A stretch of DNA of 63,864 bases, counting the filler, from Lophium mytilinum (lineage: Eukaryota), in the NCBI GenBank assembly GCA_010093605.1. It is 8 parts of 5 records of this genome, joined end to end, with 100 filler letters (N's around TTAATTAATTAA, not from the genome) between each part and the next. Parts side by side here need not be neighbours in the genome. Positions count along the whole stretch, not along the records: positions 1 to 20,535 come from MU004193.1; 7 more parts are not named here. One strand, given 5' to 3'. Below, in pieces: positions 2,890-46,748 of the stretch. The notes below the pieces were generated by a model, which had not been told where the DNA came from, did no database searches, and saw nothing but the letters and a program-made list of their open reading frames with translations. Positions within the stretch are counted from its first letter, which is position 1. The number at the start of each line of letters is the position of its first letter. A program made the position numbers and the translations under genes.

Positions 2890-2959
2890 CTATATTATAG
2901 AGGCTAGAGGGTTAGGGTTAGGTAGGGAGAAGCAAGTTTAACATAGAGAAAATCAACCT

Positions 2960-3915
2960 TTAAGAATTGCGTGCAGCATAACCTTGCACCGCCGCATTTA
3001 ACCACCACAACGTGAAATAGAGTATGCATGCAAAGAATAATACTTAGAACGCAATGCAATAGCGTTCTATTAACTTTGATTTAATTTACAAGCTGTGGTG
3101 GTGGCTTAAGGTAGGTATAGAGAGGCCGTAGGGTGCGCAGGCATAGAATGGAAATTACTTAAAGGGTTTAGCGTAAGAACAGCCTCGCGCTTAAGAATTA
3201 GTGCAACTACTACTGCATGCAACTACTATAACGTAGTATAGAAGAAATATATAAAGGATTATATATAATATGTAATACAATAGCAATCTATTAACTTAGA
3301 ATTAATATGCAGGCTATAGTAGTAGTAGCAGTTACATATAGAGGTAAGATTCTAAATAATAGAAGTTACTTAAAGAGTTTAGCGTAATGCTAGCCTTACA
3401 CTTAATAAAGACCTTAACCAGCGCTGCATGGAACCACTATAATATAAGGTTAAAGATATTTACAAGGAAAATTACTTATTATATAATGCAACAGCATTCT
3501 AGCAATTTAGAAATATTTTACAGGCTGTAGTTATAGCTCTAGGTGGGTGCAGAGGGTAGAAGGGTAAGGGAAGAGGGCAGCCAGCAGCGTAGAGTATAGC
3601 CCTATAATTAAGCAGCCTTTCTACCGCTGCATATAATAACTTCTAGATATTAAGATACTATAATAGAGCTATAATACTATATATAGTATACGTAATTAAA
3701 TTTAAAGCATTATAGAAAAGGCGAAGTCCTAGTAGTAGGTGCCTATAGAGGGTAATAGATATAATAGAAAGAGTTTTACGTTATAATAGCCTTGCCTTAG
3801 CACAGGTTGCTGCTAGATAGTATTCTTACGTAATAGAAATTTTAGCCGCATTAAATAAAATATATAAAGTAAAGGGCAGAATACAGTTTATATAATATTT
3901 ATAGATAAAGCAATT
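2960..3915 (+). repeat. Subterminal degenerate tandem repeats, ~200-220 bp period, 4-5 units
   Basis: Anchor CYGCAT at ~2994, 3215, 3426, 3629 and 3848; shared blocks CAATAGC..TCTATTAACTT, ACAGGCTGTRG and TTACTTAAAGRGTTTAGCGTAA, clearest in the first three units. Confidence 0.65.
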
Positions 3916-4141
3916 AACAGGGCTACCGCAGGAAGCCTTCCTGCTAGGGCCCTTCCCCAGCGACCTTAACCGAGTGGCCGTATCCGTAAGGGGTGTTAAA
4001 ACGGGTTAGGCGGGGTAAGCCCTATAATAAGAATGTTAATAACTCCTTGTTTTTAACTAATTACACTCCCTAACCGCTTTCTGCTCCTTAGCTCTATATT
4101 CTAAACTATTATCCCCCTTACTACTATACCTAGTAGTTAGC

Positions 4142-7100
4142 ATGGGACGCCCCCAAAAGTACTAGAATAAAGAAGAGCGAAAAGTAGCTAAATTACGTTT
4201 AATAGTGGATTTGAACCGACGCAAGAGAGATAAAAAGAAGAGGGCTGTAGACTAAACAGCTGCAGCAGGAGAGGCTAGTAAGCCTACTCCTACTTCTATT
4301 CTAGATCCGTTTCTAATTATCTTTAAAAACCCTAGAGGTCTTTCTAGTATAAATATTAGGGCCCCTTATCCTACCCGCCCTGCGCCCACGCCCTTTTAAC
4401 AACTAATTGCACCTTAGGAGCCTTTAGAGGAAACTATTGCACAACTTATAATTAGTATATCTTTTATAATCTTCTAGTATTTACGGTTAGGTTCTAATAA
4501 ACTTAAGTAGAACCCGTCTTAATAGAAGAATTATTACCTTCTACCTCTACTTAATCTACGCAATACACTCCTCCGCAGCGGTCTACCTATAGTAGTACCC
4601 GTTCTACTATTCCTTCTATATCTACCTAACCTATGTAACCTACGTAATATACTTCTCTATAGTAGTCTACCTATAGTAGTATCTATTCTACTACTTCTCC
4701 TCTATCTACTAAATCCACCTAATATTCTACTCTAGGGCGGGCTACTTATAGTAGTACTTATTCTCTCGCTCCTCTAACCTTTTAACCTACTTAACTAATA
4801 TAACTTTCTTATACCTAGCAGTCTACTAGCAGTAGTACACGCTCTAGTAAGTTAAGAGCGGCCTAATATATACCTGAAATTTAAAGCAATATAGAATTAA
4901 CGGAAGCTGTAGAGTAAGATTAGAGTAATAGTAGTAAGTATGCTATTATATAGACTATTAAGGGAGCAGCAGTTAAAGAAGAAGAAGAAGCGGCTAAAGA
5001 AAGCAAAGCAAATAAAGAAGTAGCCTAAGTAGATAAAGAAGTAGAAGAGGCAGTATTAGAGTTACTATTACCTGCATCTTCCGCGTTATCTTCTTATATA
5101 CCTGCGTTACCACCGCCTCTAGATGCTAGAGAGGTGTTGCCCTCTCTATTACTACCTTATAGCGTAGGGACACCTTAGTAAGCCGCAAATAATAATAATA
5201 GAGCTCCGGGCTAGGTTCTACCCGCTATATACTATCTCTATAAAGCGTTTCTTAAACCCGCAGCTATACTATATATATATACAGGCGTATATACTATCCT
5301 TGCCCTCTAGAATACTCTATAGACGGCTATAATACTACGCGCAAGTTTACGCGCTTAATAAACTATAGCGGCTTCTACTTCTGTACAACTAGAACTAATA
5401 ATACAATGCTAAATACTAGCCCTTATTACTGTATTACTACTCTACGTACTTGCGCAAATAACTAATAAAGAGATTATAGCGGAATTATTCTTAGCGCAAT
5501 AAAATAAGGCTGTAGAAGTGCTCTCTAGAATAGACGCTGCGGAATAAATAGATAAGGAGGAAATGCTAGCTAATATAAGTCGGTTTATGCAACTAGCGCA
5601 TAACAACGGTTGGGTTTAGATAGAGTGGTACGCTGCCTTATTATCTCTCCGCCTAACGCCAGTAACTGAGGTTGTAGAAGAGGAATTTACCTAATTTAAG
5701 AATAAGGTAGAAGCAGGTATAGATGTAGATAAGGTATTAGATAATAGAGTTAAAGAGGGTAGAGAAGGTATATATACGCAAGGACAGCAAGACACTATAG
5801 ATAAATTACCGGGTTTACTTAATAAAGTTACGCTGGAGAATTAAGGCAGTAGGGTAGATAATACAGCCTTAAATAGTAAAGGCAATAGCAAGATTATAGA
5901 TAAAGTTATAGATAAGATAGACTCTAATAGGTAAGTATTATAAGCTCTACAGTTTATATAAAGCTAATATACGTAGGCATAATAATCTATTAGTAAATAC
6001 TCCACATGCAGTAAGTATAATCTAATTAGTATTAGAAGTCCAGTGTACTTACTATATGTCTTAACTCTTTCTATTTAGATAATATAGTAGCTAATATTAT
6101 AATATAGTAAGTAACTATACAATAATTCCTTAGAGCAAATCTCTTAGCCAAGTTACTAGCTTTCTCCTAGCTTAGAACCTTCCCTTCTAACAAGAGCCTA
6201 TTACAGCTAATGCAGCCTTCTATTTAATAAGCTAACTAGAGCTATTATAGAGAGAGGATAATCCTAACAACTTTAATAATGTTTTATAGAAATTAATATT
6301 AAGCGGAGAAACTAGTAATATAGAAACTCTAAGGCTTAGTTTTATAAGGTCTAAAGCTAGCTTTATAGTAAATAAAGAGATTAAAATCTAGCAAGTATAT
6401 AACATTAATAGCGTTATTATCGGCATCTCTACTTTAGCGGCCTATAATTTATACTTCTTACTATCTCTACAACCGTTCTTTCTCTAAAGTATTACTTAAA
6501 ACTAATATATTATAATACGCGGCTATAAGCTCTATATAATAAAGTAGCTTTATATAGGGCACGGGTGTAAGCATTAATTTAAAACTTATGTGTTTTTCCC
6601 CTAGATGCCGACACTAAATAAGTAGAAGGGCGACACTTTGCATCTACTAGATACAATGCAAGCAGCTTAGCTTAATAATATTATCTTACCTGCAGTAAAG
6701 TATACTCTAATACCCGATAAGTAGCAGTATATACTATATAGTTTTAATATTATACGGGGTAAAGTAAGCGTTAAGAAAGAAAAATATATAATATTATCTA
6801 GAGACTCTTATATTAATACTAAGTATACAATTCTATAGTATTAACTCCGAGAATTCTGGGACCAAGTTCTTTACAACGCAGAAAACTTTGCAGGAACGGA
6901 TACTATACCCGAAGATTTATTTAAAGGAGTATTTCTAGTAGTCTTAGGTTATAATCTAAAAATAGTATATAAGTCCTTAAGTATAATTTAAAGCAGGGAT
7001 TAGCTACTATGTACTTTAACCACTACTTTTAATAAAAACCTAATTAATATACTAGATAAGGGGATATAGGTTAACTATAGATATAAAGATGTCCTAACTA

Positions 7101-9290
7101 CTAATTAGCTAGATACTGGGGTTACCCTTCTACGTAAAACTAGCTGCAATAACCACTAGGCCACTTACTTCTATAATAGCGAAAAAGAAAAGATTTATAT
7201 AACATTATACCCCTACTATCTTACCTAGGGCGCGTTATCTCTAATAGTAGAGCTCTAAGCAGGCAACTATAGCCGTATTAGTAGTATAGCATATAATAAA
7301 ATCTATAATAGTAATAAGATTATGCTTAAGTTACCTGTTAAGGATATTACGCCCTTTTGTAATACTTAACTAGAAGCTCTTGCATTCTTAACTAAAATAA
7401 TTAAGCGGTAGTTTAAAGTAGCAGGTGGCTCTAGAGGATTATTAAAAAGAAAACAGCTTTAGGATAGTCTTGCTGCTATTCTCTAACGCCACTATACTAT
7501 ACTCTGGAGAGACAGACACTTATTCTATAGGGTTTAAACCGAGTTCTAAGTACTTCTTACTATACTTAAGCAACTTAAAGAAAGCGCAAGTCCCGAATTT
7601 ACTATAAAGGATGGGCTGGATAATAGTAGCGAGCCTTATTACCCCTACTGGGTTCTTTCTATAGAAGAAGTTAATGCCTTTACTATTGCAAACCTTAATT
7701 GCTAGGTATTTCTTTTCTAGGTACTGTCTCTTTAGGTTACCCCCGGGCGTAATGCTAGGCATATAGTAACACTAGATAAATAGCTAGTAAATAGTTATTT
7801 AGCATCTCTTTATATCCGCCTTGCGTAAATTACTGCTGGATGTAGTAATCCCACTTAATTATCTATACTGTGGAAAAAAGAGTAGATAAATTAAAAAGAC
7901 CCCCGGAATCCTGTAACCTTATATAGCCTTAGGTTATTAGACTCCCTTAAGAAGTATAGCATAGCTTAGCTAAAGTTAGAGTACTTAGATTAGATAATAA
8001 TGCCCCTATAACTTAGCCCTTAAGGCGTTAATTAACTACAAGCCGGCCTTAGAAATTAATTCCAAGCTACGTTTACTAAAGCTCGGATCTAGGTATCTCT
8101 TACTAGGGAGGATATAGAGATGCAGTATCTATAGTATGGTATTATAGTATAGTACACGCTAGCTATTTAACGCAAAAATAGGACTAAAGTGTAAAAAGAT
8201 TGGCGATTAGCACCGCTATGGATAGGTAAGGCAGCTGCGCTTATTATTAAGGCATACTATACCGATATATACGAGCTTCTAAGTAGACAGTATATAGGAG
8301 AAGACGGAAATACTAAGACGCGACGGGAGAGTAAAGAACTACGCGACTAATTTCTTAAGAGTATTCTAAATAGATCTATAGTTGCGCTTTATCCTAATAT
8401 GCTTATAAAGCTATATAGAAAGTTAGAACTTATAGTAAGCTACGCCTACGTGCGGAATATAGCTAGAAATAGTAATATAAATTATCTAAGGCACTTAACT
8501 AGACGCTAGATTAATTAAGTCTGGCCGCTGTTTAATATTATAGATCTAGCTGCAGAAACTTAAAAATGGAACAACAGTTCCTTCTGCATAAAATTGCGAA
8601 GATTAAATGCAATAATTAGAAACGAAGCGTTACTAAAAACAGTAGAATAATTCCTTAATAATCTATAAGCAAGAGCTGCCTTATTACTCTAGGTTCTTCT
8701 AAGATATAATAATAATAAAATTTTAACCACGCGTTAAGCTAAATAAAACAACTCTAAAGATACATAAGATAATATTAGGGGAAGAGATGCAATTATAAAT
8801 ATATAGTAGATCTATATGCAACTACTAAATAGCTACTACTATAAGGTAGCCTAACTAAGCTAATATATTAAAGAACAGGCTTAAGGGGGGGTAGTTAACC
8901 TTAGCATGGACGTAGTTATAAAGGAAGTATAGAATATAACCTAGGGAAGCCTAGGAAAGTTAAAGATAATAACAATAGAGGATAATATTATAGGCCCTAG
9001 GGGTTAAGTTAATCTAAAACATGTCTAGCTTAGGTTTAAGCACTGTACACTAAATAGCCCAAGGGCTTATTTAGGCAGGATTCTAATAATTAAAGAATTC
9101 TGGAATTATTTAGTAATATAGAAGGAGCAAGAGGGGGATATAAGTAGTTAGTTATTAGATAAAGAGTATAAGTATAAAGAGAGTTTAGGTAACTATAGCT
9201 TAGAAATAGAGGACTTGGAGGACTCGGGGTAAGAGGCCTAGAAAAATAAGGCTTAAGTAGAAGAGTTCTAAGAAGCATATAGATTTAAGC
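4142..9290 (+). pseudogene. ORF1: large RIP-degraded multi-exon gene of unknown family (basic N-terminus, S/T/P-rich repeats, acidic region, globular core ~6170-8700)
   Basis: ATG at 4142 (MGRPQKY*NKEERKVAKLRL...); GTAAGT introns at ~5931-5976 and ~6107-6170. The long exon's stops are mostly RIP-type and de-RIP to YDIDS, YVFFP, QHVPHSF, GHDLK, PFCNTQLEALA and FYGVRTEF, with at least one frameshift. Confidence 0.65.
4555..4850 (+). repeat. Coding tandem repeat in ORF1 (~75-85 bp, ~4 units)
   Basis: Recurring CTACYTATAGTAGTAYY..TTCT at ~4583, 4667 and 4742, with a more degenerate unit at ~4823. Confidence 0.55.
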
Positions 9291-10374
9291 GTTAATAGGT
9301 AGACTGGCAGGGGCGGCGTTATAAAGAAGAATTATTAACGAGGAAGGTAGTAAAGTAATTAGTATAAGATGTAAAGGGCGTTAGTAGGAAGGCTTCTAGC
9401 TAGGCTCTTATATAGTACGCAAATGCTTATCTAGTAGGTGCGTAGCGGTGATATATATAAGAAGAGAGGTAATAATAGGCGTGCTTAATATAAGTAGTAA
9501 AGGGCCCTAGTAGAAAGGCTTTCTAGTAAGACCCTTATACTGTAGGCAAATAGTTATATAATAACGCGCGATGTTCTATTAACCTATCTTAGCGCAGTGC
9601 TATATTACTAGAACTAGGTAATACGTAGCGTAGTATTGTAGATTAACCGTAAATATTCGCATATTAGTAAAATTAAGTAAAACGCCGATATATTTATACC
9701 CGCGATATTTTAACCTTATATAATATATAGCCATTACGTTAACCTTAAGAGTTAACTTAAGTAGTTTACTATTAAAGGCTTAGCGTCTTAGCGGCCGGCG
9801 GCTATTAGCCCGGCCGCCTACAAACTTATCCGCCGCCTAGTAGCTTTAACTTTCTTACTTCTATACTAACCTCTCTTTCTATACTACTGTACCCCTATTA
9901 CTTCCACTTATCTAGCTACCTGCGGAACGGTTGCGCGCTAGACCCTTACTTGCTAGACGATAGTTAGCAGCTTTCTAGCTACGTTGGAGCCGTAATTGGC
10001 TAGTTTTAGGCGTCCTTTTAGCTAGCGGTTAAGCCTTTTAGTAAGTTTGCTGTCTAGTAGGTAAAATTAAGTTACGTTATAGCTAATTCTGCTAACAGGT
10101 TTATTCTATTGCAATTTCTCTAAGAGTGGAGTAAGGTAAGCGTATTATAAGGATTGTTGCAGGAAGGCTTCCTGCTAGGGCCCTTTGCTAGTCTTAGTAG
10201 ATTAGTCTGCCTTAATTTTAAAGATGCGGCGGCAGGAAATATTAAGAAAATAATAATACTAAAAATACCCGGTATAGTGCAAAGGGTCTTGGCAGGAAGC
10301 CTTTCTACTAGGGCCCTTTGCCTGCCTTCTTTCTTCTATTATTTAAGATAAGCTAACATATTAATAGGCTGGCC

Positions 10375-13300
10375 ATAAATACCTTAAGTAATGGGGACCC
10401 TAGTAAAGCAGTAGTAAAGGTTGCATCCCTGCGCATATTACCTGTAACCGACCTAGTAGATAGCTATAAGAAATAATCTACTTCTTCTAAAGTGCTAGAA
10501 GATTTAAATTCTACCTCCCTACTAGTTACTAAATTGGGGGTTGATGCCTATAGCGATTTAAAGCGCAATTAGCCGGCCACTGTAATAGATCTGGAGACGC
10601 TTATATTAGTAAATAGCAAAGTGGTTTATCTAGATAGTAATAACTATAGTAATAACTCTAATGTCCCTAAGAACTCTAATAAAGAGCAGGAGAAGCTTTA
10701 AGCGCTAGTTACTGGCACTAGAAAAGATAAAGAGTTAGAGAAGTTGTGGGCCTTAGTAAACACGCTGTATGCTAGTAGAATAAAGTTGGCTAAGCTTTAT
10801 AGTTAAATAAAAGTAGAACTTAAAGCAATTCTAGCTAAGCCTAATTTCTAAGCAATTTAGAACAAGTATAAGGATAGGTATTTAGACCTAAAGCGCGCCG
10901 TGCATAGTTAGAATTAAGGGGCTAGTTTTGCTACTGTCCTAAACGCTTTTAAGACTGGCGAGTTGTATAATCTGCAGTAATATACTACTTCTTAGCCTAA
11001 GACGGATAACTATAAACCCGTGGATTAGGCAGCTTAATTTATTAGTTAATGCTTTAATTACTACTGGAAGCGGTTTAGTGGGTTTTTGTATAACCGCGCT
11101 AATATTACTAATAACGAAGCGCTTAGAATCTTCTTTAAATTAAAGAAAAATATAGAATTTAAGAGTGGCCCGTCTTAAGCTAGCAGGACTGCCTATACTA
11201 AGAACTAAATTAAGATACAGGACGTTCTTTAAAAAATAAAGCTTAGTCTAGCACCGGCACCTAAGACCCCGGCTAAAACTATTACTTATAGCAGGAAGGA
11301 TGTTAATAGGAAGCCTTCCCGTTAAGGCCCTTCTAGGCCTCCCTATTAGCAGTCGCCCTCTTGTTTTACTAAGGAGGAACTCGCGGCCATTAATATAGAG
11401 GTTAACGCAGACAACCCTATCTAGGGGTTATCTAAAGAGGAAATTGCTGCAAACCTAGTTAATAAGGAGAAAGGCAACGTTAATGTTACTAGTACTAAGT
11501 ACATCACCGGCACTATAAAATAGAAGCTTAAGTTAGTAATTGCGCATGCTAAGCGCACTGGAGTAATAATTAACCGGAACTCGTTAAAGTTTCAATACAA
11601 CGCATATCGGGTAATTAGATAGATGGCAGGAGATTTTATATATACCGTTAAATAGCACCTAAACATGCGCGCTGCAGATCTTAATAAGGACAAGTATGCT
11701 AATCTAGACGGTATTAAATATGCCTAAGACATAGAGGCTAATATAAGGGCTACCGCTATTAATATAAAGGATATTATCCCCTTTACTATATTAACCGCGG
11801 CAGATCTTATAACGCAGAGTGCACTCCGCCTTCTAATAACTAATAAAGCCTATTAGCTAGATAACCTAAAAGAAGCAATAAAGGCCCTACGCATTTATAA
11901 CTATCAGGAACCCCGCCTTATTATAATAAATGGTAATATTTACTTAAGGTAGTAGCAGATTACCGGAGCTTACTATATATACTGTATTATATAGAAAGGC
12001 TTTCTTAGTGGGGCCTTAATTATAGATAAGGTTAGTATTAGGAAGACATTTTTAATAGCTACCCTTATTAGACATATAAGTAATTTCTCTTTAAAGAGTA
12101 TTAATAGGAAGCCTTCCTACTATCCCCCTAATAGTTTCTCTTAGCATCTACTAATTTAATTATAGCTTATTACTAAGCGCCAGCGCAAAGTTGCGGATAA
12201 GAAAGACCCCGGGCCGGCGAAGCCCTTTCTTTTTCTTGTGCCTCCCGTTTTAGTACACTAAATAGTAAATAAACTTACAAAGTTTAGTTCTAAACTTAAG
12301 CTCTATATCTATTTATTAAAGGGCTAAGTTGCTTTCTATAGCGCTACGTTTCTATACAACACCTTAACTAGGGACTATCCCTTATTTAATACTAAAAACA
12401 AGGCCAATGCTAAGAGCATTATAATCGCTAGCTATTGGGTAATAGCTAGTCGGCACGGTCCCCAGCCCGCATTAAAGTGGTATAGCGATAATAATCTTAC
12501 TAAGCTAAAGAATTGGGTTAAATATTGCCTAAGCTCTACCTGGCCCGGTCTCTTAAGTGGCTATTTCAACGTCTAATTTATAGATAAGTGCTAGCTTATT
12601 AAAAGCGACTAAGTAAACCTCCACCTAACCGCCTTATAGCTTTACTTAGACTTTACTGTACTCTATAGTGGGACCCCGCTATATATAGGCATTACTAATA
12701 TACCTGCTTACATGTCTTTTATAGAACTGAGAGATAAGTATCTATAATTCCGCACGTACCGCTTAACACCCGGTAAAGCTAAGTTTGTTCCGGGTACCGA
12801 TAATCTATTTAAGCTTCCCGACAACTATTTAGGTATAATTTTCTGGTATACACGCAAGGCTTTTAAAAATTTTATTCTGCCTTTATTTAACCCGTAAGTT
12901 ATTATATAAAGGGCCCTAGCAGGAAGGCTTCCGGCCAGGGCCCTTATCTCTTTTCTTATTTACTTTAATTTTCTAATATTTCTCCAGGATTACACAGGGG
13001 CTTTATTTACGCTTAATTTTTAGTAAGTATATAATTGCTCGCTTATACCCTTCTACATGCCCGAATAATTCCACTAATCCTGCCACCCAAATTAGAGGAT
13101 TACTTCTGTAGTTAGTTACGCGAGTAATTAAGCTACAGCCTATAAAACTAGGCTATATTATCTATGCTAATAAATCACCAGCCTACCTTAAGTTATTAAT
13201 GGTTTCTACTAAGAACCGCGTAGGCCAGCGCACCTATGCATTTAACGCATGCTCCGTGCATGCTCTTAACCTTATAAGCACTGCGCCATTTTTAGTCTAC

Positions 13301-15748
13301 TTTAAGCGCGCCATAATAGCATATCCGCAAAAGAAGGTCTTAGATTTAGAGGGTAATAAGATTAAGGATGGCCCGAAAATTATCCCTCTTAAGAATAATG
13401 GCGGTTACTGGTTAAAGGAAATTAACGTTTTGCGAGGCATAATAAAGTAAATTGCCCGGAATAAGGACGTCTAAACTAACCCTAATTAGAAAGACTTTAA
13501 AGTAAAGTCCACATTCTTTTATTACGTTGTTGCCCTTTTTATCCGCGATGCCCCTAAAGTGGCTGCACTACTATACTGTTTGGCTGACGACGTTATTAAG
13601 CGTATGGAGAAGGTTATTATCTAGACTAACTACCTAGATAAGTAAATAATTCTTACTAAGATTATTAACTATTATAAAATGGATGCTTATATATTAGCCT
13701 CTAATCTCTCTACTACTGACCGGGATAACCTTATCTTGGTGTTTAACAACCCCAACTCTAAAGTAAAGATTCTTATTACTAGTTACTAGGCTAATAGAGC
13801 TAGGCTTAATCTATAGTCTACTTACTATAATATATATCTTTTTAACCCTGCAGGCTCTATTTAGATTAAGGAGTAGGCGATAGCGCGTTTCTATAGGATT
13901 GGCCAGAAGTTTACTATTATGGTAACCGCGTTCTTTATCTAGAATATATTTAATGCCTTTACTCTCTCGCGCTAGGTATAGATAGCGCTTCCCGGTCTTA
14001 CTGCTACGTTAAACACTAACTAGATTAAGGTAGAGGGGACCTCTAAGGAAAAGCTAACCCTAGATAGCTAGTATGCGTAGGTAACCTATAATAATAAGAG
14101 CATCGCACCCCGCCTTATTATAGGCGAAATAGATATTTTAAATATGCCAGTAGAATTACACGTTAAGCGCTTTAACTCCCTATAAGACATTCTTGTATTT
14201 CTAATAACTCTTACGCAAGGCAATATAACTTTTTAGTCTAGTGGGTTTAGTAATAAGTTCTAAGAAGAACAAGCGTACGAATTTACTGAATCGGAATTAG
14301 AAGAAGAGTAGGAGAAGGGTGCGAGTAGAGCGCCTAAGAAACCGCGTGTTAATAAGCTAGGTTTAAGACTTAAGCGTTATCCTGCAAGCAGTAAGTTCGC
14401 CCTTATAGATTCTAGCGGGAAGGCTTCCTGCTAGGGCCCTACTTGCCTCTTTATACTTTGCTAATCCGTGTTTTATAGTAAAAGCTACCCTAAAGCCGAA
14501 GCTAAAGACGCTAGAGTAATAAAATAGTAAAGCTTTAAAGTAGAAGCGCAAAGCTAGTGCTGCACTAGCGGCTGCCGTTAAAAAGCGTAAGCCTAACCCT
14601 AAGTCTGCTGTTATGGTTAAAGACTCTAATTCTGCTAAATCTAATATGCCCACCCCTATAAAGAGCACTACTAGAAATACTTATAGCCCTTTTGTCTGTT
14701 AATATAGGCTGGAGCGTAACCCTTTACGTTAAGTACCCGCTATTTTTAGTAATATAAACGGCGACAACCCTTTTAGTAGGCTAAATAGTAATAACTCTAA
14801 AGGCGAAGAGTATAAGAATAATACTTTATTTCTTGCAAAGTATATAGGTAAGAATTTATTCTAGGGCCTTTTTAGGAAGCCTTCCTGCTAGGGCCCTTTA
14901 GTATTGCCTATTATATTACTTAAGTGCTAACTATTATAGTAGCTCCTACTTCCGCCCGTTAACCTACTTTAACTCTACCTTCTGGCCCTCTTAGTACCTT
15001 TAATAGACGCCTTGTTAGGACCCCTTCTATAGACCCCGTCCCGTCGCCTAATACATAGAAGAAGAGGCAGCGCGGAATGTCTACTATCTTCTTATAGGAT
15101 TCTATAGATAATCTAGTTTTTTATTTACTACTAAAAGCTAATATTAATATAAATAATAAGTAGAATAAGGAGAATATTAAAACCCCTAACGTTAATATAG
15201 AGAACGTCCCGTTTAAGACTAATAAGTAAAACGGGGGGTATCTTAATAATTACCTGGATTTTACTACTACGCTATCTAAAGTTGCCTTTAAGCGTAATAG
15301 CAACTACAGTAGTAACTTAGACGACCCGCCGGAATTTATAGAAGGGGCCTTGCAGCCAACCCTAAAGACTATGTCCTCTAGTAATACTAATAAGGGTTAA
15401 AAGCGCTAAGGCGTAAAAAAGAAGCCCACTGTAAAGAAGGATAAAGCAGCTAAGAAAGACCCTATATTTAAATCCCTTATGTATTGTCCGTATAAGTATA
15501 TAATAGAGGAAGAGATTACTAAGTAGCGCCCTTAGCGTAAAAGGAAGGCTGCTAAGAAGAAAGCTGCTGTGTAGAAGTCTATAAACTCTACTAGACTAAA
15601 AATAGACCTATGCAGGCGGAAGAATAATTCTAATGTTGGCTGACTGCCCGTAGTATTAGGTGCAGATACTAACCCTAATAGTAAAGAGGATAGCAGTAAA
15701 TTAGAGGGGACTAGCATAGCACTAGAGAAGTCTAATAGCGAGGTATAA
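10375..15748 (+). pseudogene. SNF2-family (SF2) ATPase/helicase gene, RIP-inactivated
   Basis: Ordered motifs: Q motif LR**QITGA (~11944); motif I GALIIDKVSIRKT = GALIADEVGIGKT (12010-12048); motif II FIDKC*LIKS = FVDECQLIKS (~12577); motif III LYSGTP (12661); IV EKVII*TNY (~13607); V ILITSY*ANRARLNL* = ...GAGLNLQ (~13769); VI E*AIARFYRIGQK (~13871). Introns at ~12076-12165, 12894-12987, 14391-14478 and 14848-14939, plus upstream introns 10041-10098 and 10136-10367. Confidence 0.92.
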
Positions 15749-16119
15749 CTAGTAGAGTCTTTATAGGAAGGCTTTCTATAGGGGCCCTTACTCTACTTTT
15801 TAGATTTAGTTTAGCATCTCTTAATGTTTTTTTCTTTTTCTTTCTAACGGTTCTAATTAGGACTACTTTCCTTGCTATTAGTTTATACCTACTTACTTAG
15901 TGCTACTAACTTTTTACTATTCTAATTTCTTGCTTGCGTTCTATCCTCTACCCCCTAATAGTTAGCACTACTCTATAGTAGTAGTACACTTTATGCCCTT
16001 AAAATCTCCTAGTTTATATTTAGCCTCTAGATAGCGGCTTACTTAACTATAGAATATAGCGTAATATTTACTACTATAACTGTGCCTTATGTATCTTATG
16101 CGTAATATAATATTTATTT

Positions 16120-17400
16120 TATTTATCTATGTTGTAGGGGGCGGTCTTATCCGCCGTAGTTTATATAGTCGGGGAGGGTAATTGCATTCTAATGCCGCTC
16201 TATTATATCTATACTATTAGTATATGCTCCCTATCTTTTTTATAGTAAAGAATCTACTATTATATACCCTGTAATTTAACCCTCTTTACTAATATTAGTT
16301 ATACGGCTGGGCTGAGTCCTCTCTATAGACTCTATCTATTAACACGCTGTATGCGACTTTATTCTACCTATAGTTTTCTAAAGCGTGTATTATTGCATAA
16401 TACCTAAACTAACCGGAAGGAGAGTTATTTATACGTGTTGTTGTTAAGTTTTTAGCGTACTAGGCGGCGGAAGGTAATTTAGGTGTCGTAGTTGTACTTT
16501 CTAGTTTATCGGCGATGTATTTGGACCTGCTTATTATTAGCAAGGATAGTAATTCTTAAGGGGTTACAGTCTTACCGTTTATTACTTTTAATATAACTTT
16601 CCTCCTCCTTGCAGTTATAAATAGTCTCTATATTATAAATAGAACTGCTCTTTTATTCTAGTATTTTTCTTTACTTCTATTCTTATAGCCGTCTTAATAA
16701 GCGCTTTAGCCGTGTAAGCTTTCTTCTTACAACTAAATCTAGGGTAGTATTTACAACCTTGCGCCTAGACAGGGTATTAGGCGTAGTAAGGGGAGAAGCT
16801 AACCGCTCTATTAGGATATATGTATTAGGCAGACGTAGATATATCTGCCCCTGCTAAATATTATCCTCGGCGTTTAGAGTTGCTGTGCTGCTGCGCGTTA
16901 ACCTTAGTGTACCGGGCTGTATTTTATATACTTTAGCCTGGTTTAGAGTTGCAGCCGTCTCTACGTTAGGTTAGGCCGCTTCTTATCTCGCAAATATCCG
17001 CCGGAACGCTCTAGAAAGGACGTATATAGTATACTAATTAAGACTTACGTATAGTATTGTGCGTGGGCTGCTACTATACTATAAGGGGTAGGTAGTAGTT
17101 AGAAAAAGGTTTAATGCGCTAGTTTCTATTAATCTTAGCATATTACGTGCTAACTACTTGTATTATACCTACACTTATAATTAACCTTTAGAGGTTAACT
17201 CTATATACTATATATAAATAGCAGCACTAAGAGTTTTATTTTATTACTATACTATACGTATATTTTACCTTAGGCGGGACTAGTAGGTCCCTATAATGTA
17301 TAGTTTATATAACTATACTCTACGTTGCTTTAGCGCCCGCCCAATTTACTTTTCCTCTCTTTTCTTACTCCTTTAGCTTATTCCTCTCTATACTATAGCT
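16120..17400 (-). pseudogene. Unidentified RIP-degraded gene with introns
   Basis: Long near-open minus frame (ETAATLNQAKVYKIQPGTLRL...RRKLTRLKRLLRR); minus-strand introns GTAAGA...GCTAAT...CAG (~16527-16575) and GTAGGT...GCTAAG...TAG (~17126-17172). Confidence 0.45.
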
Positions 17401-17578
17401 GCAGGCAAACTAATAGCTAGAACTAGCACGGGAGAGACTCTTAATTGTATTTAAAGTACTTTAGAGAGATAGATTAATAGTATATAAAGTTTTAAAGCCG
17501 GCAGGCCGTGGGAATACCTATGCAACTAACTTGGGAGAGCAGCACGCTAAGAACAGCACCGCCACAATAGGTATACTA

Positions 17579-18207
17579 ATGGGCTCGGGTACTATTACTT
17601 AGAACCCTCTTCTTAACCCTAATACACCTAGTAATACCGCGGATCTTGCTGCATAAAACGCTAGAGAGGAGTCCTTATTATTTATTTCTAAAATAACTCC
17701 TAAGCTAGCTAATATAGACTAACTCTACACGACTAAACCGCTTACTGTAGAGGATACTGCCGACCCTACCTGCATCCGTGCCTAGAGAGAAGCACTTCTT
17801 GCAACTATCTAGAATTAAAACGGAGGTTCCCTCTTTAGTAATAGCCTAGGCACGTCCACTAATACTGCTCTTAATATGCAGCCTACTATAACTAAGTCTT
17901 AAACTCTCTATAACTATGCTAACCCCCTATCTTAAGCTACTAGAGATAGCGCCCCACCTTCTAAGTCTAATATTAATATTAAGCCTAAACTAGCTAACAA
18001 AGTTAATGTAAAGATTAAGCCTAGTATTAAGATTAAGCCCGGCCTTATAAGCAGCCTGGATACTACAAGTTTTTTAAGAATAATTCTAAGGATAAGGAGC
18101 TTCTGCGCTTGCGGATTAATATAGAAGAGAAGGAGGCAAGGGCTATATAAATAAGATTTAAGGCTATAGCTAGAGAGCGGAAGCGGCAGGGCCTAATCCA
18201 CTTCTAA
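17579..18207 (+). pseudogene. Unidentified RIP-degraded ORF with IKxE-like repeats and a charged helical C-terminus
   Basis: MGSGTIT... then IKPK/VKIKPS/IKIKPG repeats and KELLRLRINIEEKEARAI*IRFKAIARERKRQG, with a possible frameshift between them. Confidence 0.35.
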
Positions 18208-18237
18208 ATCTAAACCTTAGACGGGAGTAGTAGCGCC

Positions 18238-18386
18238 CTAATCTATTCCTATCTCTACGCGCTTATTAGTAAATACCCAACTCTTTATCCAGCGCTGCCA
18301 GGCTCTTACTATCCCCCAACCTATCTTCTCCTTTAATAGCAACGCGTCCCTGCCCTTCTAGAACTGCACCCTAGCCCTCTACGCCG
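18238..18386 (+). repeat. 149-bp direct duplication of the start of the dsRBD gene
   Basis: Colinear with 19331-19479 (…CGCTTATTAGTAAAYACCCARCTCTTTATCYAGCGCTGCCAGGC…CTCTACGCCG); differences are mostly transitions. Confidence 0.9.
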
Positions 18387-18624
18387 TCTACGTGGAAATT
18401 ATCTAATAGGCTTTACTCTTTTACTTTACCTTACTCTTATTTCCTTCTTTAATAGCTTTATCTCTACTCTTCTACTATTAGTCTTATCTTCTTCCACTAT
18501 AGCGGAGCCTCTAGATCTAACCCCTAGTAATAGTACTAGTTTACCCTTTACTACTATAGCGAAACCCGAAGATTTATCTTCTATTACTACTACTACCGCG
18601 TTGCTAACTCGCGAGCCCTAAAAT

Positions 18625-18757
18625 TGCGGATATTGCAGAAAGGAAGCTACTCTAAGGTGCAGTTGCTACGCCAGCGTTATCTACTGCAATGCGGATTATT
18701 AAAAGGCCAACTGGAAATTATCTAATGCGCCGCCTTCTTGCATAAAGGTTGTTGCAC
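18625..18757 (+). pseudogene. MYND-type zinc finger relic
   Basis: CGYCRKEATLRCSCYASVIYCNADY*KANWK, then HKGCC in a shifted frame. De-RIPed this is CxxC-x7-CxxC-x5-C-x3-CQKADWK...HKxxC, the MYND signature. Confidence 0.8.
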
Positions 18758-19330
18758 TATAATAAGACTCCTATGCTTTAGCTTAAATTTACTAATAGAC
18801 AGCGAAGAGCGTAAAGTTTAGCGGATTATCTAAGGGGTAGAAATTAAAACGGGCTCTAGCTCTATTATGCGACTATAAGCTGTAATATACTTTACCTCTT
18901 ATAAACTTAGCCCGCTACGCATAAATATAGAGTCTCTCCTGCCTAAGCGCTAAAGAATAACTTCTAGTAGAGCAGCTGCAGCTACCCTAGCTTGTGCAGA
19001 TTAAACTAGCACCCCACCTTAGCCTTCTTAGGCTAGCCTTTAACCTTATATATACACTAGCGTAGGCAGTAATAATTATTCTTATCCTTTCTTTATACTA
19101 AGCTTAATTACTACGCCGCTTCCTAGCTTTAAGAAGAAAAGAAAGATAGAGGTTGCAACTCCTCTTAGTAGTTAAAACTCTACCTACGCCCCGCCGTTAA
19201 TTAATTAGATACGTAGAGGCTCTATTCTAGGTGCCCTAAGTGTGCTATAAAACCTTTTTAGTATTAATAAGTTTAAGAAGCAGTATAAAGCCGCCGTTGC
19301 CGCTGCTAGAGCCTAAGCCTAATCTACTCT

Positions 19331-20301
19331 CTAACCTATCTCTATCTCTATACGCTTATTAGTAAACACCCAGCTCTTTATCTAGCGCTGCCAGGCCCTT
19401 GCCATCCCCTAACCTATCTTCTTATTTAACGGCGACGCCTTTCTACTCTTCTAGAACTGCACTCTAACCCTCTACGCCGCCGGCTCCCCCCACTTTCTTA
19501 CTACTACTAGCCTCTTTACCTCTAAGAAAGAAGCTAAAGAAGCCGCCTCTACCTTTAGCCTTGCCCTTCTCTCCTCTCTTAAAGCCTCGGGCATAGTCTC
19601 TACCCCTAGCAAAACTAAAAAATATACTCTAACTCTAACTCCTACTACTACTACCCCTGAGGAACCCTAGGAAAACTTTACTAGTATTTTTATAGAATTC
19701 TGCTAAGCCTCTAAAATCCCCGTTCTAACCTTTACTAAGTTTAAAACCGGCACCTGCTTCTCCGCCGAGCTATTACTGGCCTCGCACCGCCTGGAGAACG
19801 CCCCCTTTAGCGGCTGCGCTATGCTCTACCCGTTAAAGAAAGCGGCTTATGCGGCTATAGTAAGGGAGGCGGTGCTCTAGCTGCGCGTAGAAATAGCTGC
19901 CCGCTATATATAAGCCCGCGTCCGTAAAGAAGTAGTAGAAGACGGTAGGGGGTTCTAAGAACGCCGCGGTGCAGCTACCGGGTAGTGTAGCAGCGCGGGT
20001 GCTGGCGCTGGCGAGCGAGCTAGGGCTACCGCAGCCGGAGTATTAGTAGGCGGCGCTAAGTGCGCTAGCGCCGGGGCTATCTATAGTAAGTAGTTTGTTC
20101 CCGGGGAGTAGAGTAGGCGGGGAGGATAGGGTAGTAGTAATAGTAAGGCATGTAGTTAGAAAGAAGGCGGCGAGGGAGAAGTATGCGCGGTTAATAGGAA
20201 TGGAGTTAGAAGGAGTATTAGAGAGGAGGAAGGGGGTGTTAGAAAAGGTGTTAGAGAAGGGAAAGAGGGAGGTAGAGATAAGAGAGGAGGATAAGAACTA
20301 G
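19331..20301 (+). pseudogene. Double-stranded RNA-binding-domain (dsrm) protein relic, 2-3 dsRBD-like repeats
   Basis: Domain 1 QLFI*RCQALAIP*PIF...FTSKKEAKEAASTFSLALL; domain 2 ENFTSIFIEFC*ASKIPVLTF...CFSAEL...YPLKKAAYAAIVREAVL*L; third partial VRHVVRKKAAREKYARL (= ORF-track 20095-20301). KKxA(K)xxAA helices are typical of dsRBDs. Confidence 0.75.
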
Positions 20302-20419
20302 TATTCTTATTAGAAGTATAGAGAGACATATAATAGGAACTTATTTATACTTACTTAATTTAGGTTATAGTAGGGGAAGCATATTAGAAGTATAGTAAGT
20401 AGGAAGTATAATTACTTCC

Positions 20420-20535
20420 GTTAGGGTTAGGGTTAGGGTTTTAGGGTTAGGGTTAGGGTTAGGGTTAGGGTTAGGGTTAGGGTTAGGGTTAGGGTTAGGG
20501 TTAGGGTTAGGGTTAGGGTTAGGGTTAGGGTTAGG
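20420..20535 (+). repeat. Telomeric (TTAGGG)n tract at contig end
   Basis: ~19 TTAGGG units with one extra TT at 20439-20440, G-rich strand pointing to the contig end, free of RIP-type changes. Confidence 0.95.
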
Positions 20536-34622: not shown

Positions 34623-35117
34623 CTTTCTTCTTAGTAGCCTTTTTTTTATACTAAGAGTACTACTTAGTAATCTCTTTCTCTATTATATACTTATATAGAT
34701 AATATATAAGAAATTTAAATATAGGGTCTTTCTTAGCTGCTTTATTCTTCTTTATAGTAGGCTTCTTTTTTACACCTTAGCGCTTTTAACTCTTATTAGT
34801 ATTACTAGAAGATATAGTTTTTAAGGTTAGCTATAAGGCCCCTTCTATAAATTCTAGCGGGTTATTTAAGTTACTACTATAGTTGCTATTACACTTAAAG
34901 GTAACTTTAGATAGCATAGTAGTAAAATCTAGGTAATTATTAAGATACCCCCTATTTTACTTATTAGTCTTAGACGGGATATTCTCTATATTAATATTAG
35001 GGGTTTTAATATTCTTCTTATTCTACTTATTACTCTTAGTCTAGTTATTATCTATATTAATGTTAGCTTTTAGTAGTAAATAAAAAACTAGATTATCTAT
35101 AGAATTCTATAAAAAGA
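34623..35117 (-). mobile_element. Inverted copy of SNF2-element segment ~15085-15563
   Basis: Reverse complement aligns to the SNF2 gene 3' region with extra RIP transitions and an ~18-bp indel. Confidence 0.9.
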
Positions 35118-35217
35118 NNNNNNNNNNNNNNNNNNNNNNNNNNNNNNNNNNNNNNNNNNNNTTAATTAATTAANNNNNNNNNNNNNNNNNNNNNNNNNNN
35201 NNNNNNNNNNNNNNNNN

Positions 35218-37685
35218 GAAAGGCTTTCTACTAAGACCCTTTATACTATGCTAGGTATTTTTAGTATTATTATTTTCTTAATATTTTCTGCTACTATATC
35301 TTTAAAATTAAGGTAGACTAATCTACTAAGACTAGTAAAGGGCCCTAGTAGAAAGCCTTTCTATAATAATTCTTATAATACGCTTACCTTACTTTACTCT
35401 TAGAGAAATTATAATAGAATAAACCTATTAGTAGAATTAGCTATAATATAACTTAATTTTACCTACTAGATAGTAAACTTACTAAAAGGCTTAACCGCTA
35501 GCTAAAAAGATACCTAAAATAAGCTAATTGCGGCTCCAATATAGCTAGAAAGCTACTAACTATTATCTAGTAAGTAAGAAACTAGCGCGCAACTATTCCG
35601 CAGGTAGCTAGATAAGTAGAAGTAATAGGGGTATAGTAGTATAGAAGGAAAGATTAGTATAAAAGTAAGAAAGTTAAAGCTACTAGGCAGTAGATAAGTT
35701 TATAGGTAGCCGGGCTAATAGCCGCCGGCCGCTAAAACGCTAAGCCTTTAATAGTAAACTACTTAAGTTAACTCTTAAGGTTAATATAATAGCTATATAT
35801 TATATAAGGTTAAAATATTACAGGTATAAATATATTAGCGTTTTGCTTAATTTTACTAATATATAAATATTTACGGTTAATCTATAATACTATGCTATAT
35901 ATTACCTAGTTCTAGTAATATAGCACTATACTAAGATAGGTTAATAGAATATTATATATTATTATATAACTATTTACCTATAGTATAAGGGTCTTGCTAG
36001 AAAGCCTTTCTACTAGGGCCCTTTACTACTTATATTAAGCACGCCTATTATTACCTCTCTTTTTATATATATTACTACTATATATCTACTAAATAAGTAT
36101 TTATATACTATATAAGAGCCTAGCTAGAAGCCTTTCTACTAATACTCTTTATATCTTATACTAATTACTTTACTATCTTTTTTATTAATAATTCTTCTTT
36201 ATAACGCCGCCCCTACTAGTCTACCTATTAACGCTTAAATCTATATACTCTTTTAGAACTCTTCTACTTAAGCCTTATTCTTCTAGGCCTCTTACCCTAA
36301 GTTTTCTAAGTCCTCTATTTCTAAGCTATAGTTATCTAAACTCTCTTTATACTTATACTCTTTATCTAATAACTAACTATTTATATCCTCCTCTTACTCC
36401 TTCTATATTACTAAATAATTCTAGAATTCTTTAATTATTAGAATCCTGCCTAAATAAGCCCTTAGGCTATTTAGTATATAGTACTTAAACCTAAGCTAGA
36501 TATATTTTAAATTAACTTAACCCCTAGGGCCTATAATATTATCCTCTATTATTATTATCTTTAACTTTTCTAGGCTTCCCTAGGTTATATTCTATACTTC
36601 CTTTATAACTATATCTATGCTAAGGTTAACTACCCCCTCTTAAGCCTATTCTTTAATATATTAGCTTAGTTAGGCTATCTTATAGTAGTAGCTATTTAGT
36701 AGTTATATATAGATCTACTATATATTTATAATTATATTTCTTTCTCTAATATTATCTTATATATCTTTAGAGTTATTTTATTTAGCTTAATATATAGTTA
36801 AAATTTTATTATTATTATATCTTAGAAGAACCTAGAGTAATAAGGCGGCTCTTGCTTATAGATTATTAAGGAATTATTCTACTATTTTTAGTAACGCTTT
36901 ATTTCTAATTATTATATTTAATCTTTATAATTTTATACGGAAGGAACTGTTATTCTATTTTTAAGTTTCTGCAGCTAGATCTATAATATTAAACAGCAGC
37001 TAGACTTAATTAATCTAGCGTCTAGTTAAGTGCGTTAGATAATTTATATTACTATTTCTAGCTATATTCCATATATAGGCGTAGCTTACTATAAGTTTTA
37101 ACTTTCTATATAGCCTTATAAGTATATTAAAATAAAGTATAACTATAGATCTATATAGAATACTCTTAAAAAATTAGTTATATAGTTCTTTACTCTTCTA
37201 TTATATCTTAGTATTTCTATCTTCTTCTATATACTATCTACTTAGAAGCTTATATATATTAGTATAGTATGCCTTAATAATAAGTATAGCTACCTTACCT
37301 ATCTATAGCGGTGCTAATTACTAATCTTTTTACACTCTAGTCCTATTTTTATATTAAATAGCTAGCGTGTACTATACTATAATGCTATACTATAGATACT
37401 ATATCTCTATATTCTTCTTAGTAAGAGATATCTAGATCTAAGCTTTAGTAAATATAGCTTAGAATTAATTTCTAAGGCCGGCTTATAGTTAATTAACGCC
37501 TTAAGGGCTAAGTTATAGGGGCGTTATTATCTAATCTAAGTACTCTAACTTTAGCTAAGCTATACTATACTTCTTAAGGGAGTTTAATAACCTAAGGCTA
37601 TATAAGGTTATAGAATTCTAGAGGTCTTTTTAATTTATCTACTCTTTTTTCTATAGTATAAATAATTAAGTAGAATTACTATATC
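35218..37685 (-). mobile_element. Inverted copy of SNF2-element segment ~7839-10305
   Basis: Colinear reverse complement of the ORF1 3' part, the intergenic region and palindrome copies (~35218, 35338, 35987, 36114). Confidence 0.92.
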
Positions 37686-37785
37686 NNNNNNNNNNNNNNN
37701 NNNNNNNNNNNNNNNNNNNNNNNNNNNNNTTAATTAATTAANNNNNNNNNNNNNNNNNNNNNNNNNNNNNNNNNNNNNNNNNNNN

Positions 37786-39126
37786 TAAGTTAATAGATTA
37801 CTATTATATTATATATTATATATAATTCTTTATATATTTCTTCTATACTATATTATAGTAGTTGCATATAGTAGTAGTTATACTAATTCTTAAGTATAAG
37901 GCTATTCTTACGCTAAACCCTTTAAGTAATTTCTATTCTATGCCTGCGCACCCTGCAGCCTCTCTATATTTACTTTAAGCTACTACTATAGCTTATAAAT
38001 TAAATTAAAGTTAATAGAATGCTATTATATTATATTCTAAGTATTATTCTTTATATATATACTCTATTTTATATTATAGTAGTTAAATGTAGTAGTGTAA
38101 GATTATACTATATATAATTCTTAAAGGTTAATTTTCTCTATATTAAACTTGCTTCTCTCTATCTAACTTTAACCCTCTAGCCTCTATAATATAGTATCTT
38201 ACTATTCTTATATATATATATCTTCTCTACCCTCTTTAACTTTATTATCTAATACCTTATCTATATCTATACCTGCTTCTATCTTATTCTTAAGTTAGAT
38301 AAATTCCTCTTCTATAACCTTAGTTACTAGCATTAGGTGGAGAGATAATAAGGTAGTATACTACTCTATCTAAACCTAACTATTATTATACGCTAGTTAT
38401 ATAAACTAACTTATATTAGCTAGCATTTTCTTCTTATCTATTTATTTTATAGTATTTATTCTAAAGAGTACTTCTATAGCCTTATTTTATTATATTAAGA
38501 ATAATTCTACTATAATCTCTTTATTAGTTATTTATATAAGTATATAGAGGAGTAATATAGTAATAAAAGCTAGTATTTAGTATTATATTATTAGCTCTAG
38601 TTATATAGAAGTAGAAGCTGCTATAGTTTATTAAGCGCGTAAACTTGCGTATAGTATTATAGCTATCTATAGAGTATTCTAGAGGGTAAAAATAGTATAT
38701 ATACCTATATATATATATAGTATAGCTATAGGTTTAAGAAATACTTTATAGAGATAGCGTATAGTAGATAGAACCTAGCCTAAAGCTCTATTATTATTAT
38801 TTATAGCTTACTAAGGTATTTCTATACTAGAAGGTAGTAATAGAGAGAGTAATACCTCTCTAGTATCTAGAGGTAGTAGTAACGCAGGTATATAAGAAGA
38901 TAATATAGAAGATATAGGTAATAGTAACTTTAATACTACTTCTTCTACTTTTTTATCTACTTAGGCTACTTCTTTATTTACTTTACTTTCTTTAGCTGCT
39001 TCTTCTTCTTCTTTAACTGCTACTTTCTTAATAGTCTATATAATAGTATACTTACTACTATTACTTTAATCTTACTTTATAGCTTCTATTAATTCTATAT
39101 TACTTTAAATTTTAGGTATATATTAG
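37786..39126 (-). mobile_element. Element left end (=2890-3298) fused into ORF1 of another copy (=4863-5799)
   Basis: 37786-38194 is the reverse complement of 2890-3298; 38190-39126 is the reverse complement of 4863-5799; the junction lies within one contig. Confidence 0.88.
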
Positions 39127-45417: not shown

Positions 45418-46748
45418 TATTATTATTATTAAATTCTATTATACTAGTATAGCTCCCGTTAGGGTCTATATAGCTATTCTATCTAGGCTAATTTATAAGG
45501 GGAAACTATTTACTACTAGGTAGTATTTAGGTAAAAACCTTATCTTCTATTATATCTAGTAATAGGCGCCCTTCTTTTTTATATTTTACTATAGGGGATA
45601 TATAGTAGATCTATAAAAACTACTATAGAATAAGCTATTAAGATATATCTTTTTATATCTATCTAGAAAGGTTTATTATTATTCTTCTAGGTTTAGGCTA
45701 AGTAGAATCTAGATATAAGGCTAGTATAGAATTAGTATAAGGGCCTATATATAAGTAGTGCGCTTATAGGGCCTTTATCTAAGATAATAAGATAAAATAA
45801 ATAGTAGCTATATAGGCTATTAGAGATAGAAAGGCTATATAGTATATAGATAGTATATAGTAGAGGTATATAGAAAGTATATAGTTTATAAATAGGCTAT
45901 TATTTTATAGGCGGGCTATAAGAGTAGAAGGGCTATAAGTAGCTATATAGAGTTTATAGCTATAATAGTAAGTATAAGTCTCTATAGTATAGCTAATAAC
46001 TATAGATAGGCTAAAAGTATAGAGTATATAGTTTATAGTCTATAAATAGAAAGTATATAGCTATTTATAGTAAGTATAAGCCTTTATAGTATAACTAACT
46101 AATAGTAAAAGAAAGAGAGCCGCGTATATATACTATTATAAAGTAGATAGGCTATTTAGAAATAGAAGGGCTATAAAAAATAGAAAGTATATAGAAAGTA
46201 TATATTATAAAGTATATAGTAGAGACCTAAAGCTAACTATCTATACTAAGTACTAGTTAAAAGGGGGCGCTAAGGCCCGCTATAGTATAGTTAGAGGGTA
46301 GTAGTAAGGCTATAGGTAATAGTAAGACTATAGATAATAGTAAGGCTACTAGTAATAGTAAGGCTATTAGTTATAGTAAGGCTATAGGTAATAGTAAGAC
46401 TATAGTTTATAGTAAGGCTATAGGTAATAGTAGAGCTATAGTATTAAGTAAAAGGGCTAGGTCTACTTTCTTTCTATCTTTCTTACTATTAAAAGGTAGA
46501 GTAGTAGGTCTATTCTTTATAGAAACTATCTAGCTACTATTTTAAATTTCTTTTTACTTTTATATATTTTCTTATATATCTAAGTCTTTACTTTTTTAAA
46601 TAGTTTACCTCTACTCTCTATATACCTCTTATAGTTTATTACTATATAGTATAGTAATTAGAGGCTATACCTATAAAGATAGGCTAGTATTAGATAGCCT
46701 AGTATCTATATATAGTATAGATATCTATTAAGTTCTATATACTCTATT
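45418..46748 (-). mobile_element. Tad1-like LINE copy A (3' end: C-terminal CCHC region, 3' UTR, tail), interrupted by Gypsy 4
   Basis: Colinear with ~46830-48146 but more RIPed; (TAA)n tail at 45418-45430. Confidence 0.88.

Follow-up and report, generated by a model that had tools for sequence, protein, structure and literature searches.

A SNF2-like gene within a telomere-linked element

The window analyzed here is a 63,864-nt stretch of Lophium mytilinum DNA (assembly GCA_010093605.1) with, near its start, one copy of a telomere-linked element that carries a SNF2-like ATPase gene, and the subject of this report is a palindrome that recurs along this element, chiefly in the introns of that gene. 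Positions 1 to 20535 are the right end of contig C13 of the genome (G000; 43.4 Mb, 49 contigs) and end in TTAGGG; the remainder of the window comes from other contigs, separated by N spacers. The element is about 18 kb in size (Table 1), with pieces on 20 of the 49 contigs, almost always at contig ends, and a copy depth of 10 to 19 at most positions. All of the aligned copies carry the marks of repeat-induced point mutation (RIP), 1293 of the 1350 variable alignment columns in 9900-15199 being C/T or G/A; CpA is the main target, with 0.72 of copies mutated.

The SNF2-like gene is dead, and its RIP-broken exons match the Pfam domains SNF2-rel_dom (E 0.012) and Helicase_C (E 0.014) when stops are read through. 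A profile of nine gene copies recovers 195 relatives at E≤0.001, the top one (P0001) at 1e-41, and the homologues P0001 to P0004 have clear Pfam SNF2 and/or Helicase_C domains. A metagenome scan gives three related loci, of which L090 (8.4 kb) is largely intact with GT-AG introns, and L091 and L092 are shorter and more distant. L090 aligns along exons A to C at 23 to 36% protein identity (tblastn E 1e-24 to 8e-55), and the SNF2 N-terminal region is conserved with it at about 22%. Searches for longer relatives returned no full-length named homologue, a weak indication, and the viral collection gave neither a relative nor a match to the site pattern described below. Two distant SNF2 loci were seen in prokaryote genomes.

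A palindrome concentrated in introns

The palindrome is 35 nt long, with the core GGAAG-(G/C)-CTTCC and outer arms AGGG…CCCT. The window element has seven exact 11-nt cores and 10 at ≤1 mismatch, compared with means of 0.0 and 0.15 in 100 Markov simulations. The sites are single and dispersed, 126 to 1496 nt apart, and show no tandem amplification. Seven of the eight sites in the gene span are intronic, with introns making up 13% of that span (p=5e-6); leaving out the unproven intron at 15743-15860, the count is six of seven (p=4e-5). No site was found in 3954-9374 or 15789-20420 of the window element, and the array thus spans the SNF2 gene together with both element ends. The full site is confined to the element: across the genome, a degenerate 24-nt pattern for the site matches 85 times and its reversed control not once, and all 85 lie in element copies, 82 of them mapping to aligned copies and the other three falling in copies seen in other alignments.

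All of the introns are predictions from splice signals, reading frames, and homologue alignment. The initial annotation had reported the palindrome in five introns of the gene (introns 1 to 5), shortly after the donor, with two copies in the first intron and a similar length for the other four, and these observations are confirmed. Each intron is found where it had been placed, with GT…AG ends and a CTRAY-type branch site; the first palindrome copy starts 14 to 19 nt past the donor, the copies in intron 1 start at 10150 and 10283, and the remaining introns are 88 to 94 nt long. The donor at 12076 reads ATAAG in the window, the G being kept in 2 of 14 aligned copies. Introns 3, 4, and 5 link low-stop reading frames in matching phase, and removing intron 3 restores colinearity with P0002 to P0004, which are intron-less there. 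Intron 1 may instead consist of a pair of ~90-nt introns flanking a 48-nt exon. The phase would suit this, but the signals for splicing at the inner ends are weak: 11 of 17 copies have a GC-type inner donor, and the inner acceptor, AAG, lacks a clear branch site.

Several features had been overlooked, namely the short motif-free intron at 10041, the candidate intron at 15743-15860, the coding site at 11297, and the sites at 3919, 9375, and 9501, which do not lie in clear introns. The candidate intron is called from its splice signals, and the frame downstream is without support. The 11297 site may alternatively lie inside an intron of 117 nt (11294-11410) that keeps the reading frame and whose donor is GT in 15 of 16 copies. 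This site and its neighbor at 12095 are of one subtype, both reading VNRKPS in frame. The 9375 and 9501 sites are possibly in introns of a minus-strand transcript. We note a possible small gene on the minus strand of 8700-9720, whose introns might house these two sites, with weak splice signals, and a motif-free 97-nt candidate intron at 6011-6107.

Table 1. Coordinates in the window of the element, its reading frames, predicted introns, and palindrome sites
Feature	Position	Strand	Evidence or remarks
Telomere-linked element, RIP-mutated	2893..20420	+	85-93% identical copies at contig ends; fixed inner end 2890-2896
Dead SNF2-like ATPase gene	9950..15860 (both limits approximate)	+	Pfam, homologues, tblastn to L090
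Short intron without motif, 58 nt	10041..10098	+	GTAAGT…GCTAAC…CAG; ends kept in 18-19 copies
Intron 1, 232 nt, two sites (10150-10184, 10283-10317)	10136..10367	+	GT…AG ends, CTRAY-type branch site
Palindrome in coding frame, reads VNRKPSR	11297..11331	+	Orthologous to L090:3515 (VVGKASG); protein alignment without a 39-residue gap
Intron 2, 90 nt, phase 0, site 12095-12129	12076..12165	+	Just after Walker A; position and phase as L090:4214-4304
Intron 3, 94 nt, phase 2, site 12910-12944	12894..12987	+	Absent in L090 and P0002-P0004
Intron 4, 88 nt, phase 1, site 14406-14440	14391..14478	+	Frame switch 12989 to 14481
Intron 5, 92 nt, phase 1, site 14863-14897	14848..14939	+	Frame switch 14481 to 14942
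Candidate intron 6, 118 nt, or 3' non-coding DNA, site 15754-15788	15743..15860	+	Weak donor, pyrimidine tract, CTAAC, TAG
Two sites upstream of the gene	9375-9409, 9501-9535	-	9501 with reversed arm polarity
Lone site ~1 kb from the inner end	3919..3953	+	No donor nearby
Dead large open reading frame, unnamed family; candidate binder or mobility protein	6180..8850	+	Homologue P0153; no motif copies inside

Conservation of the core in a distant relative

L090 holds two exact cores and eight at ≤1 mismatch, against means of 0.0 and 0.17 and maxima of 0 and 2 in 300 simulations. One exact core lies in the 91-nt intron L090:4214-4304, which is orthologous to intron 2 (identical codon and phase, after Walker A); the arms of this site are T/A-rich and those in the window element GC-rich, and it is ~38 nt from the donor and adjoins the branch point, compared with 11 to 19 nt in most window-element introns. 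A one-mismatch core (3515) is at the codon aligned with 11297, with VNRKPSR over VVGKASG in the identical frame and no intron-sized gap. Intron 3 is missing from L090, and the second exact core (5458) is ~190 nt further on, in coding DNA of the ATPase domain; at least three of the eight L090 sites are in coding DNA. There is no DNA similarity between the window element and L090 outside the motif and one telomere-like 23-mer. Orthologous positions, one intronic and one coding, have retained the core at 23 to 31% protein identity, with flanks that cannot be aligned, which implies selection, and these positions therefore point to a site that has long been kept, in introns if available and in codons if not.

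Two other features of L090 were noted. The 23-nt stretch at L090:7750-7772, downstream of the SNF2 homologue, is telomere-like and resembles the element inner end (20/23 identical, E 0.43); it is possibly the start of a tandem copy. Long terminal inverted repeats flank an AT-rich interior at L090:1497-1990, with a sub-threshold miRNA match in Rfam, and this segment is probably a miniature inverted-repeat transposable element.

Element ends, copies, and candidate proteins

The inner end of the element is constant to within a few bases, and the flanking DNA beyond it is unrelated: all 23 alignment rows (some covering the same place twice) begin at 2890-2896, immediately before TTAGGG remnants. 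The window copy is truncated at its other end and re-capped by telomere repeats; it terminates early at 20420, its cap is the TTAGGG repeats at 20421-20535, and six copies extend ~0.5 to 0.7 kb past 20420, up to a common outer end followed by telomere repeats. Full-length copies (L063:6715-7330; also L062, L064, and L067-L069) have two further palindrome sites past window position 20420, near the outer end, along with degenerate ~50-nt tandem repeats and a common terminal sequence directly before TTAGGG. The inner end is also fused to truncated earlier copies at five places in the genome (C8:35341, C22:2173, C5:18129, C5:18589, and C17:5296; compare window 2890-2920), the earlier copies being cut at arbitrary element positions (15133, 13006, 3344, 10177, and 6346) with a 2- to 4-nt overlap in four of the five joins. 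The fixed inner end and the head-to-tail joins suggest attachment to broken chromosome ends without a known enzyme.

No reverse transcriptase, ribozyme, or transposase was detected in these RIP-degraded copies by Pfam, Rfam, and RVT_1 scans. There is no Pfam match of any kind in 12 read-through frames of the element outside the SNF2 gene, and none of 150 scored RVT_1 matches (out of 192 candidates; checked by eye) falls in mapped element segments, RIP lowering the sensitivity of the scan. A de-RIP view of the element shows no reverse transcriptase motif, again with a sensitivity limited by heavy RIP. An Rfam search gave no match inside the element, and the least-mutated copy has none at E≤1, hammerhead ribozyme included, with the caveat that RIP would damage such a ribozyme.

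Candidates for an element-encoded binder of the palindrome are the SNF2 N-terminal region and the unnamed open reading frame upstream (6180-8850), for which the sole homologue found is P0153 (1010 amino acids, 25 to 34% identity). Neither has a Pfam, PDB, or ESM Atlas family, and AlphaFold models of the candidate proteins are unusable (mean pLDDT 34 and 42).

Other parts of the element and window carry further repeats and frames. Low-stop frames are present at 15950-17300 (minus strand) and 17400-20100 (plus strand), without a Pfam match, and 18238-18386 and 19331-19479 are an internal duplication. The internal loci L074 (G000:C11:708700-710218), L075, L077, and L079 match the distal part of the element at 78 to 83% identity; L074 is seemingly RIP-free and may be a host or ancestral source of the distal reading frames. 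Degenerate tandem repeats are at 4543-4845 (~80 nt), 1298-1557 (~52 nt), and 46283-47842 (18 nt), the last inside a 1.4-kb duplication, and partial inverted element copies from other contigs occupy 34623-39126, with palindrome sites at 35339, 35988, and 36114.

DNA site or RNA stem

We infer that the palindrome is bound by a protein, and our preferred explanation, to which we give about half of our confidence, is a cis-acting DNA site private to the telomere-linked element and recognized by a dimeric, element-encoded protein, placed mostly in introns and used for self-recognition like that of the VANC proteins of VANDAL transposons. A dimer, most likely of the SNF2 N-terminus or the upstream open reading frame, would recognize the 11-bp core and also, a turn of the helix further out, the AGGG…CCCT arms. 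Roughly ten sites, every ~0.1 to 1.5 kb, line the SNF2 gene, with one close to the inner end and two close to the outer one. They would load the ATPase or mark the element as self, leaving it open or copyable in silenced subtelomeric chromatin; an ATPase of the SNF2 type, bound along the gene that encodes it in subtelomeric heterochromatin, could serve a VANC-like end. Introns presumably hold most of the sites because a site there costs the protein nothing, and where there is no intron the site would be written into codons. Among the three possibilities raised by the initial annotation (propagation of a palindrome-bearing unit, introns sheltering DNA-binding sites, and a hairpin that gates splicing), the second appears to be the best supported.

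The pattern of conservation is in keeping with such a site. Across 24 half-sites, conservation is 96 to 100% at +1 to +5, 46 to 83% at +9 to +13, and 88 to 100% at +14 to +17, and from general protein-DNA geometry the two conserved blocks ~12 bp apart on each side would fit a dimer touching two successive major grooves. The center base is G or C in 12 of 12 sites (7 C, 5 G), which fits a dyad read in either orientation.

Several points weigh against a DNA site. No DNA-binding fold was found for the candidate proteins in Pfam, PDB, ESM Atlas, or AlphaFold models; L091 and L092 have no core; and the conservation is drawn from a single informative homologous locus, L090, in which six one-mismatch sites were chosen on the core itself. 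The motif is polar, a left-arm T facing a right-arm G that is fixed in all copies at several sites and flipped at 9501, and this polarity suits an RNA stem. The sites are 11 to 19 nt past the donor in most introns, a regularity needless for a DNA site, and the arms have changed from GC-rich in the window element to T/A-rich in L090 while staying roughly complementary. Within-site covariation in the element is borderline when wobble is counted (p 0.056 to 0.094), and residual RIP blurs the arm sequences.

The strongest competitor, which we nevertheless regard as rather unlikely, is an RNA hairpin, either a pre-mRNA stem bound by an element protein or one that hides splice signals and causes intron retention, for autoregulation or to provide an intact unspliced copying template. 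It would account for the intronic location of seven of the eight gene sites, their regular distance from the donor, and the polarity of the motif along the gene, seen in its fixed T·G pairs. In five of eight introns or candidate introns with the motif, the predicted fold is more stable on the sense strand than on the antisense strand. The element also resembles telomere retroelements in its constant inner end and ragged outer truncations; searches of the element turned up neither a reverse transcriptase nor a ribozyme. Selection that acts first on structure predicts within-site covariation of the arms and an excess of G·U on the transcribed strand. G·T is not above A·C, with 14 versus 10 outside RIP contexts (p=0.54) and 21 versus 16 overall (11 sites), and covariation counting Watson-Crick pairs is not significant in the element (p 0.14 to 0.21), nor is covariation in L090 (p 0.19 to 0.55; Watson-Crick only, 0.27 to 0.50). 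In all, eight covariation tests give p from 0.056 to 0.55 on few sites and with RIP noise; since the tests for covariation and for wobble are both of small size and affected by RIP, we retain the RNA explanation. Also against it are the sites in coding DNA and near both element ends and the L090 intronic site, which is beside the branch point. An Rnt1-type AGNN tetraloop was rejected, as the stem closes on a 3- or 5-nt loop.

Spread of the palindrome and of the introns

A functionless micro-parasite, in which a small hairpin unit spread in cis by slippage, gene conversion, or cruciform repair, survived where harmless, and sometimes created an intron, is improbable. The shared subtype of the neighbors 11297 and 12095 and the lineage-specific intron 3 are consistent with it, as is the presence of 4 of 68 breakpoints inside a site (2.2% expected, p=0.06), an enrichment that we do not accept; against it stands the retention of the core at orthologous intron and coding positions of L090.

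Still less probable, and largely refuted, is one of the options raised by the initial annotation, that the ~90-nt introns are introner-like elements, copies of one mobile intron. Four introns are indeed of nearly equal length, and the motif introns (88 to 118 nt) have predicted folds of -12 to -33.5 kcal/mol, more stable than that of the 58-nt motif-free intron (-8.6 kcal/mol); this baseline consists of two motif-free introns, and the 97-nt one gives -14.5 kcal/mol. However, the introns are unrelated outside the motif: among 28 intron pairs compared 3' of it, three reach p 0.03 to 0.04 and none is significant after correction. Intron positions give a divided answer, intron 2 being at an old position common to the distant relative L090, and intron 3 being absent in L090 and in P0002 to P0004; this absence in four homologues is the sole point for recent gain. 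The lack of the full site in host DNA, the motif copies outside introns, and the motif-free candidate intron at 6011-6107 also speak against propagation. We note that introns with a common hairpin need not be introners, as a site under selection can gather in introns or contribute to their origin.

A host transcription or telomere factor site captured by the element is hardly credible: the bare 11-nt core has 63 genome matches versus 21 for the control, and 35 of the 50 listed are outside the element, but none of these 35 has the outer arms (≥6/8 outer bases), one is in an intron-like context, and we know of no fungal factor with such a site.

If an element-encoded protein does bind the sites, they would be a compact, testable case of self-recognition and protection of a selfish element in fungal subtelomeric heterochromatin, bearing on the role of telomere-linked helicase genes and on the route to new chromosome ends. 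We can also tentatively envisage, with low confidence, a fungal telomere-capping family with its own SNF2 remodeller and a private 35-bp dyad array that runs through the introns and codons of the remodeller gene and reaches both ends of the element. The element protein would dock on these dyads and keep the element active within silenced chromosome ends, or copy it onto broken ends by way of the constant inner terminus, with neither a transposase nor a reverse transcriptase involved. Since all copies in this genome that were aligned are dead, the value lies in intact relatives.

Comparison with known systems

Penelope-like elements have one fixed end joined to chromosome ends, are truncated on the other side, and retain introns. 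The element described here is similar in all three respects and differs in that no reverse transcriptase or hammerhead was found in it, with a sensitivity limited by RIP. Telomere-associated Penelope-like retroelements are among those named in PMC3105345. A literature search, mainly of open papers, found no description of the palindrome or of a SNF2 telomere element with such an array, and the supplements of PMC3017866 and PMC3105345 could hold related repeats.

Fungal introner-like elements are described as near-identical introns with up to hundreds of copies in unrelated genes (PMC3609843). The introns here are likewise spliceosomal with a stable predicted hairpin, and they exceed the gene's short motif-free intron in length; unlike introner-like elements, they share the motif only and never leave the element. 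The X3X3R8 repeat of Stagonospora nodorum is described as a RIP-degraded multi-copy repeat with a Rad5/SNF2-like helicase, unknown open reading frames, and a Rad6 ubiquitin-conjugating gene (PMC3017866). Compared by description only, the two are alike in RIP degradation, copy number, SNF2-like helicase, and unknown frames, and the description of X3X3R8 includes the Rad6 gene and carries neither telomere linkage nor a palindrome; of its gene pair, SNF2 is present here, and the read-through frames of the rest gave no Pfam match.

The proposed mode of action is closest to that of the Arabidopsis VANDAL transposons, in which VANC21 is reported to bind a short private motif in the introns and spacers of its own transposon and to remove silencing (PMC5735166). 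The likeness is in an element-private short motif enriched in introns and spacers, and we use it as a model of how the element might work, with no claim of homology. The VANC motifs are described as 8 to 9 nt, nonpalindromic, and tandem-amplified, with binding and demethylation proven (PMC5735166), and the site here is a 35-nt dyad in single copies with a putative binder. Should the telomere-capping scenario envisaged above be true, the family would amount to a counterpart in fungi of VANC anti-silencing, combined with a so far undescribed way of spreading by end capture.

In its chromosomal setting, the element most resembles the telomere-linked helicase (TLH) regions of Magnaporthe oryzae, whose private helicase-associated repeats are described as including one, HAR-D, with an imperfect palindrome of 23 bp, and whose inner boundary is described as sharp (PMC1635262), the TLH helicase being a RecQ helicase (PMC3017866). 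In common with TLH regions and yeast Y' elements, there is a helicase-type gene at many chromosome ends with variable truncation on the telomere side, and, as in TLH regions, a sharp inner boundary with telomere-like motifs and private repeats (PMC1635262). In contrast, the gene here and its homologues have SNF2-rel_dom and Helicase_C rather than RecQ, the palindrome is present as single sites through introns and codons rather than as repeat blocks beside the gene, and new copies join truncated older copies head to tail. The SNF2 telomere-linked element is a new variant among telomere-linked helicase elements, for which we propose the mechanism set out above.

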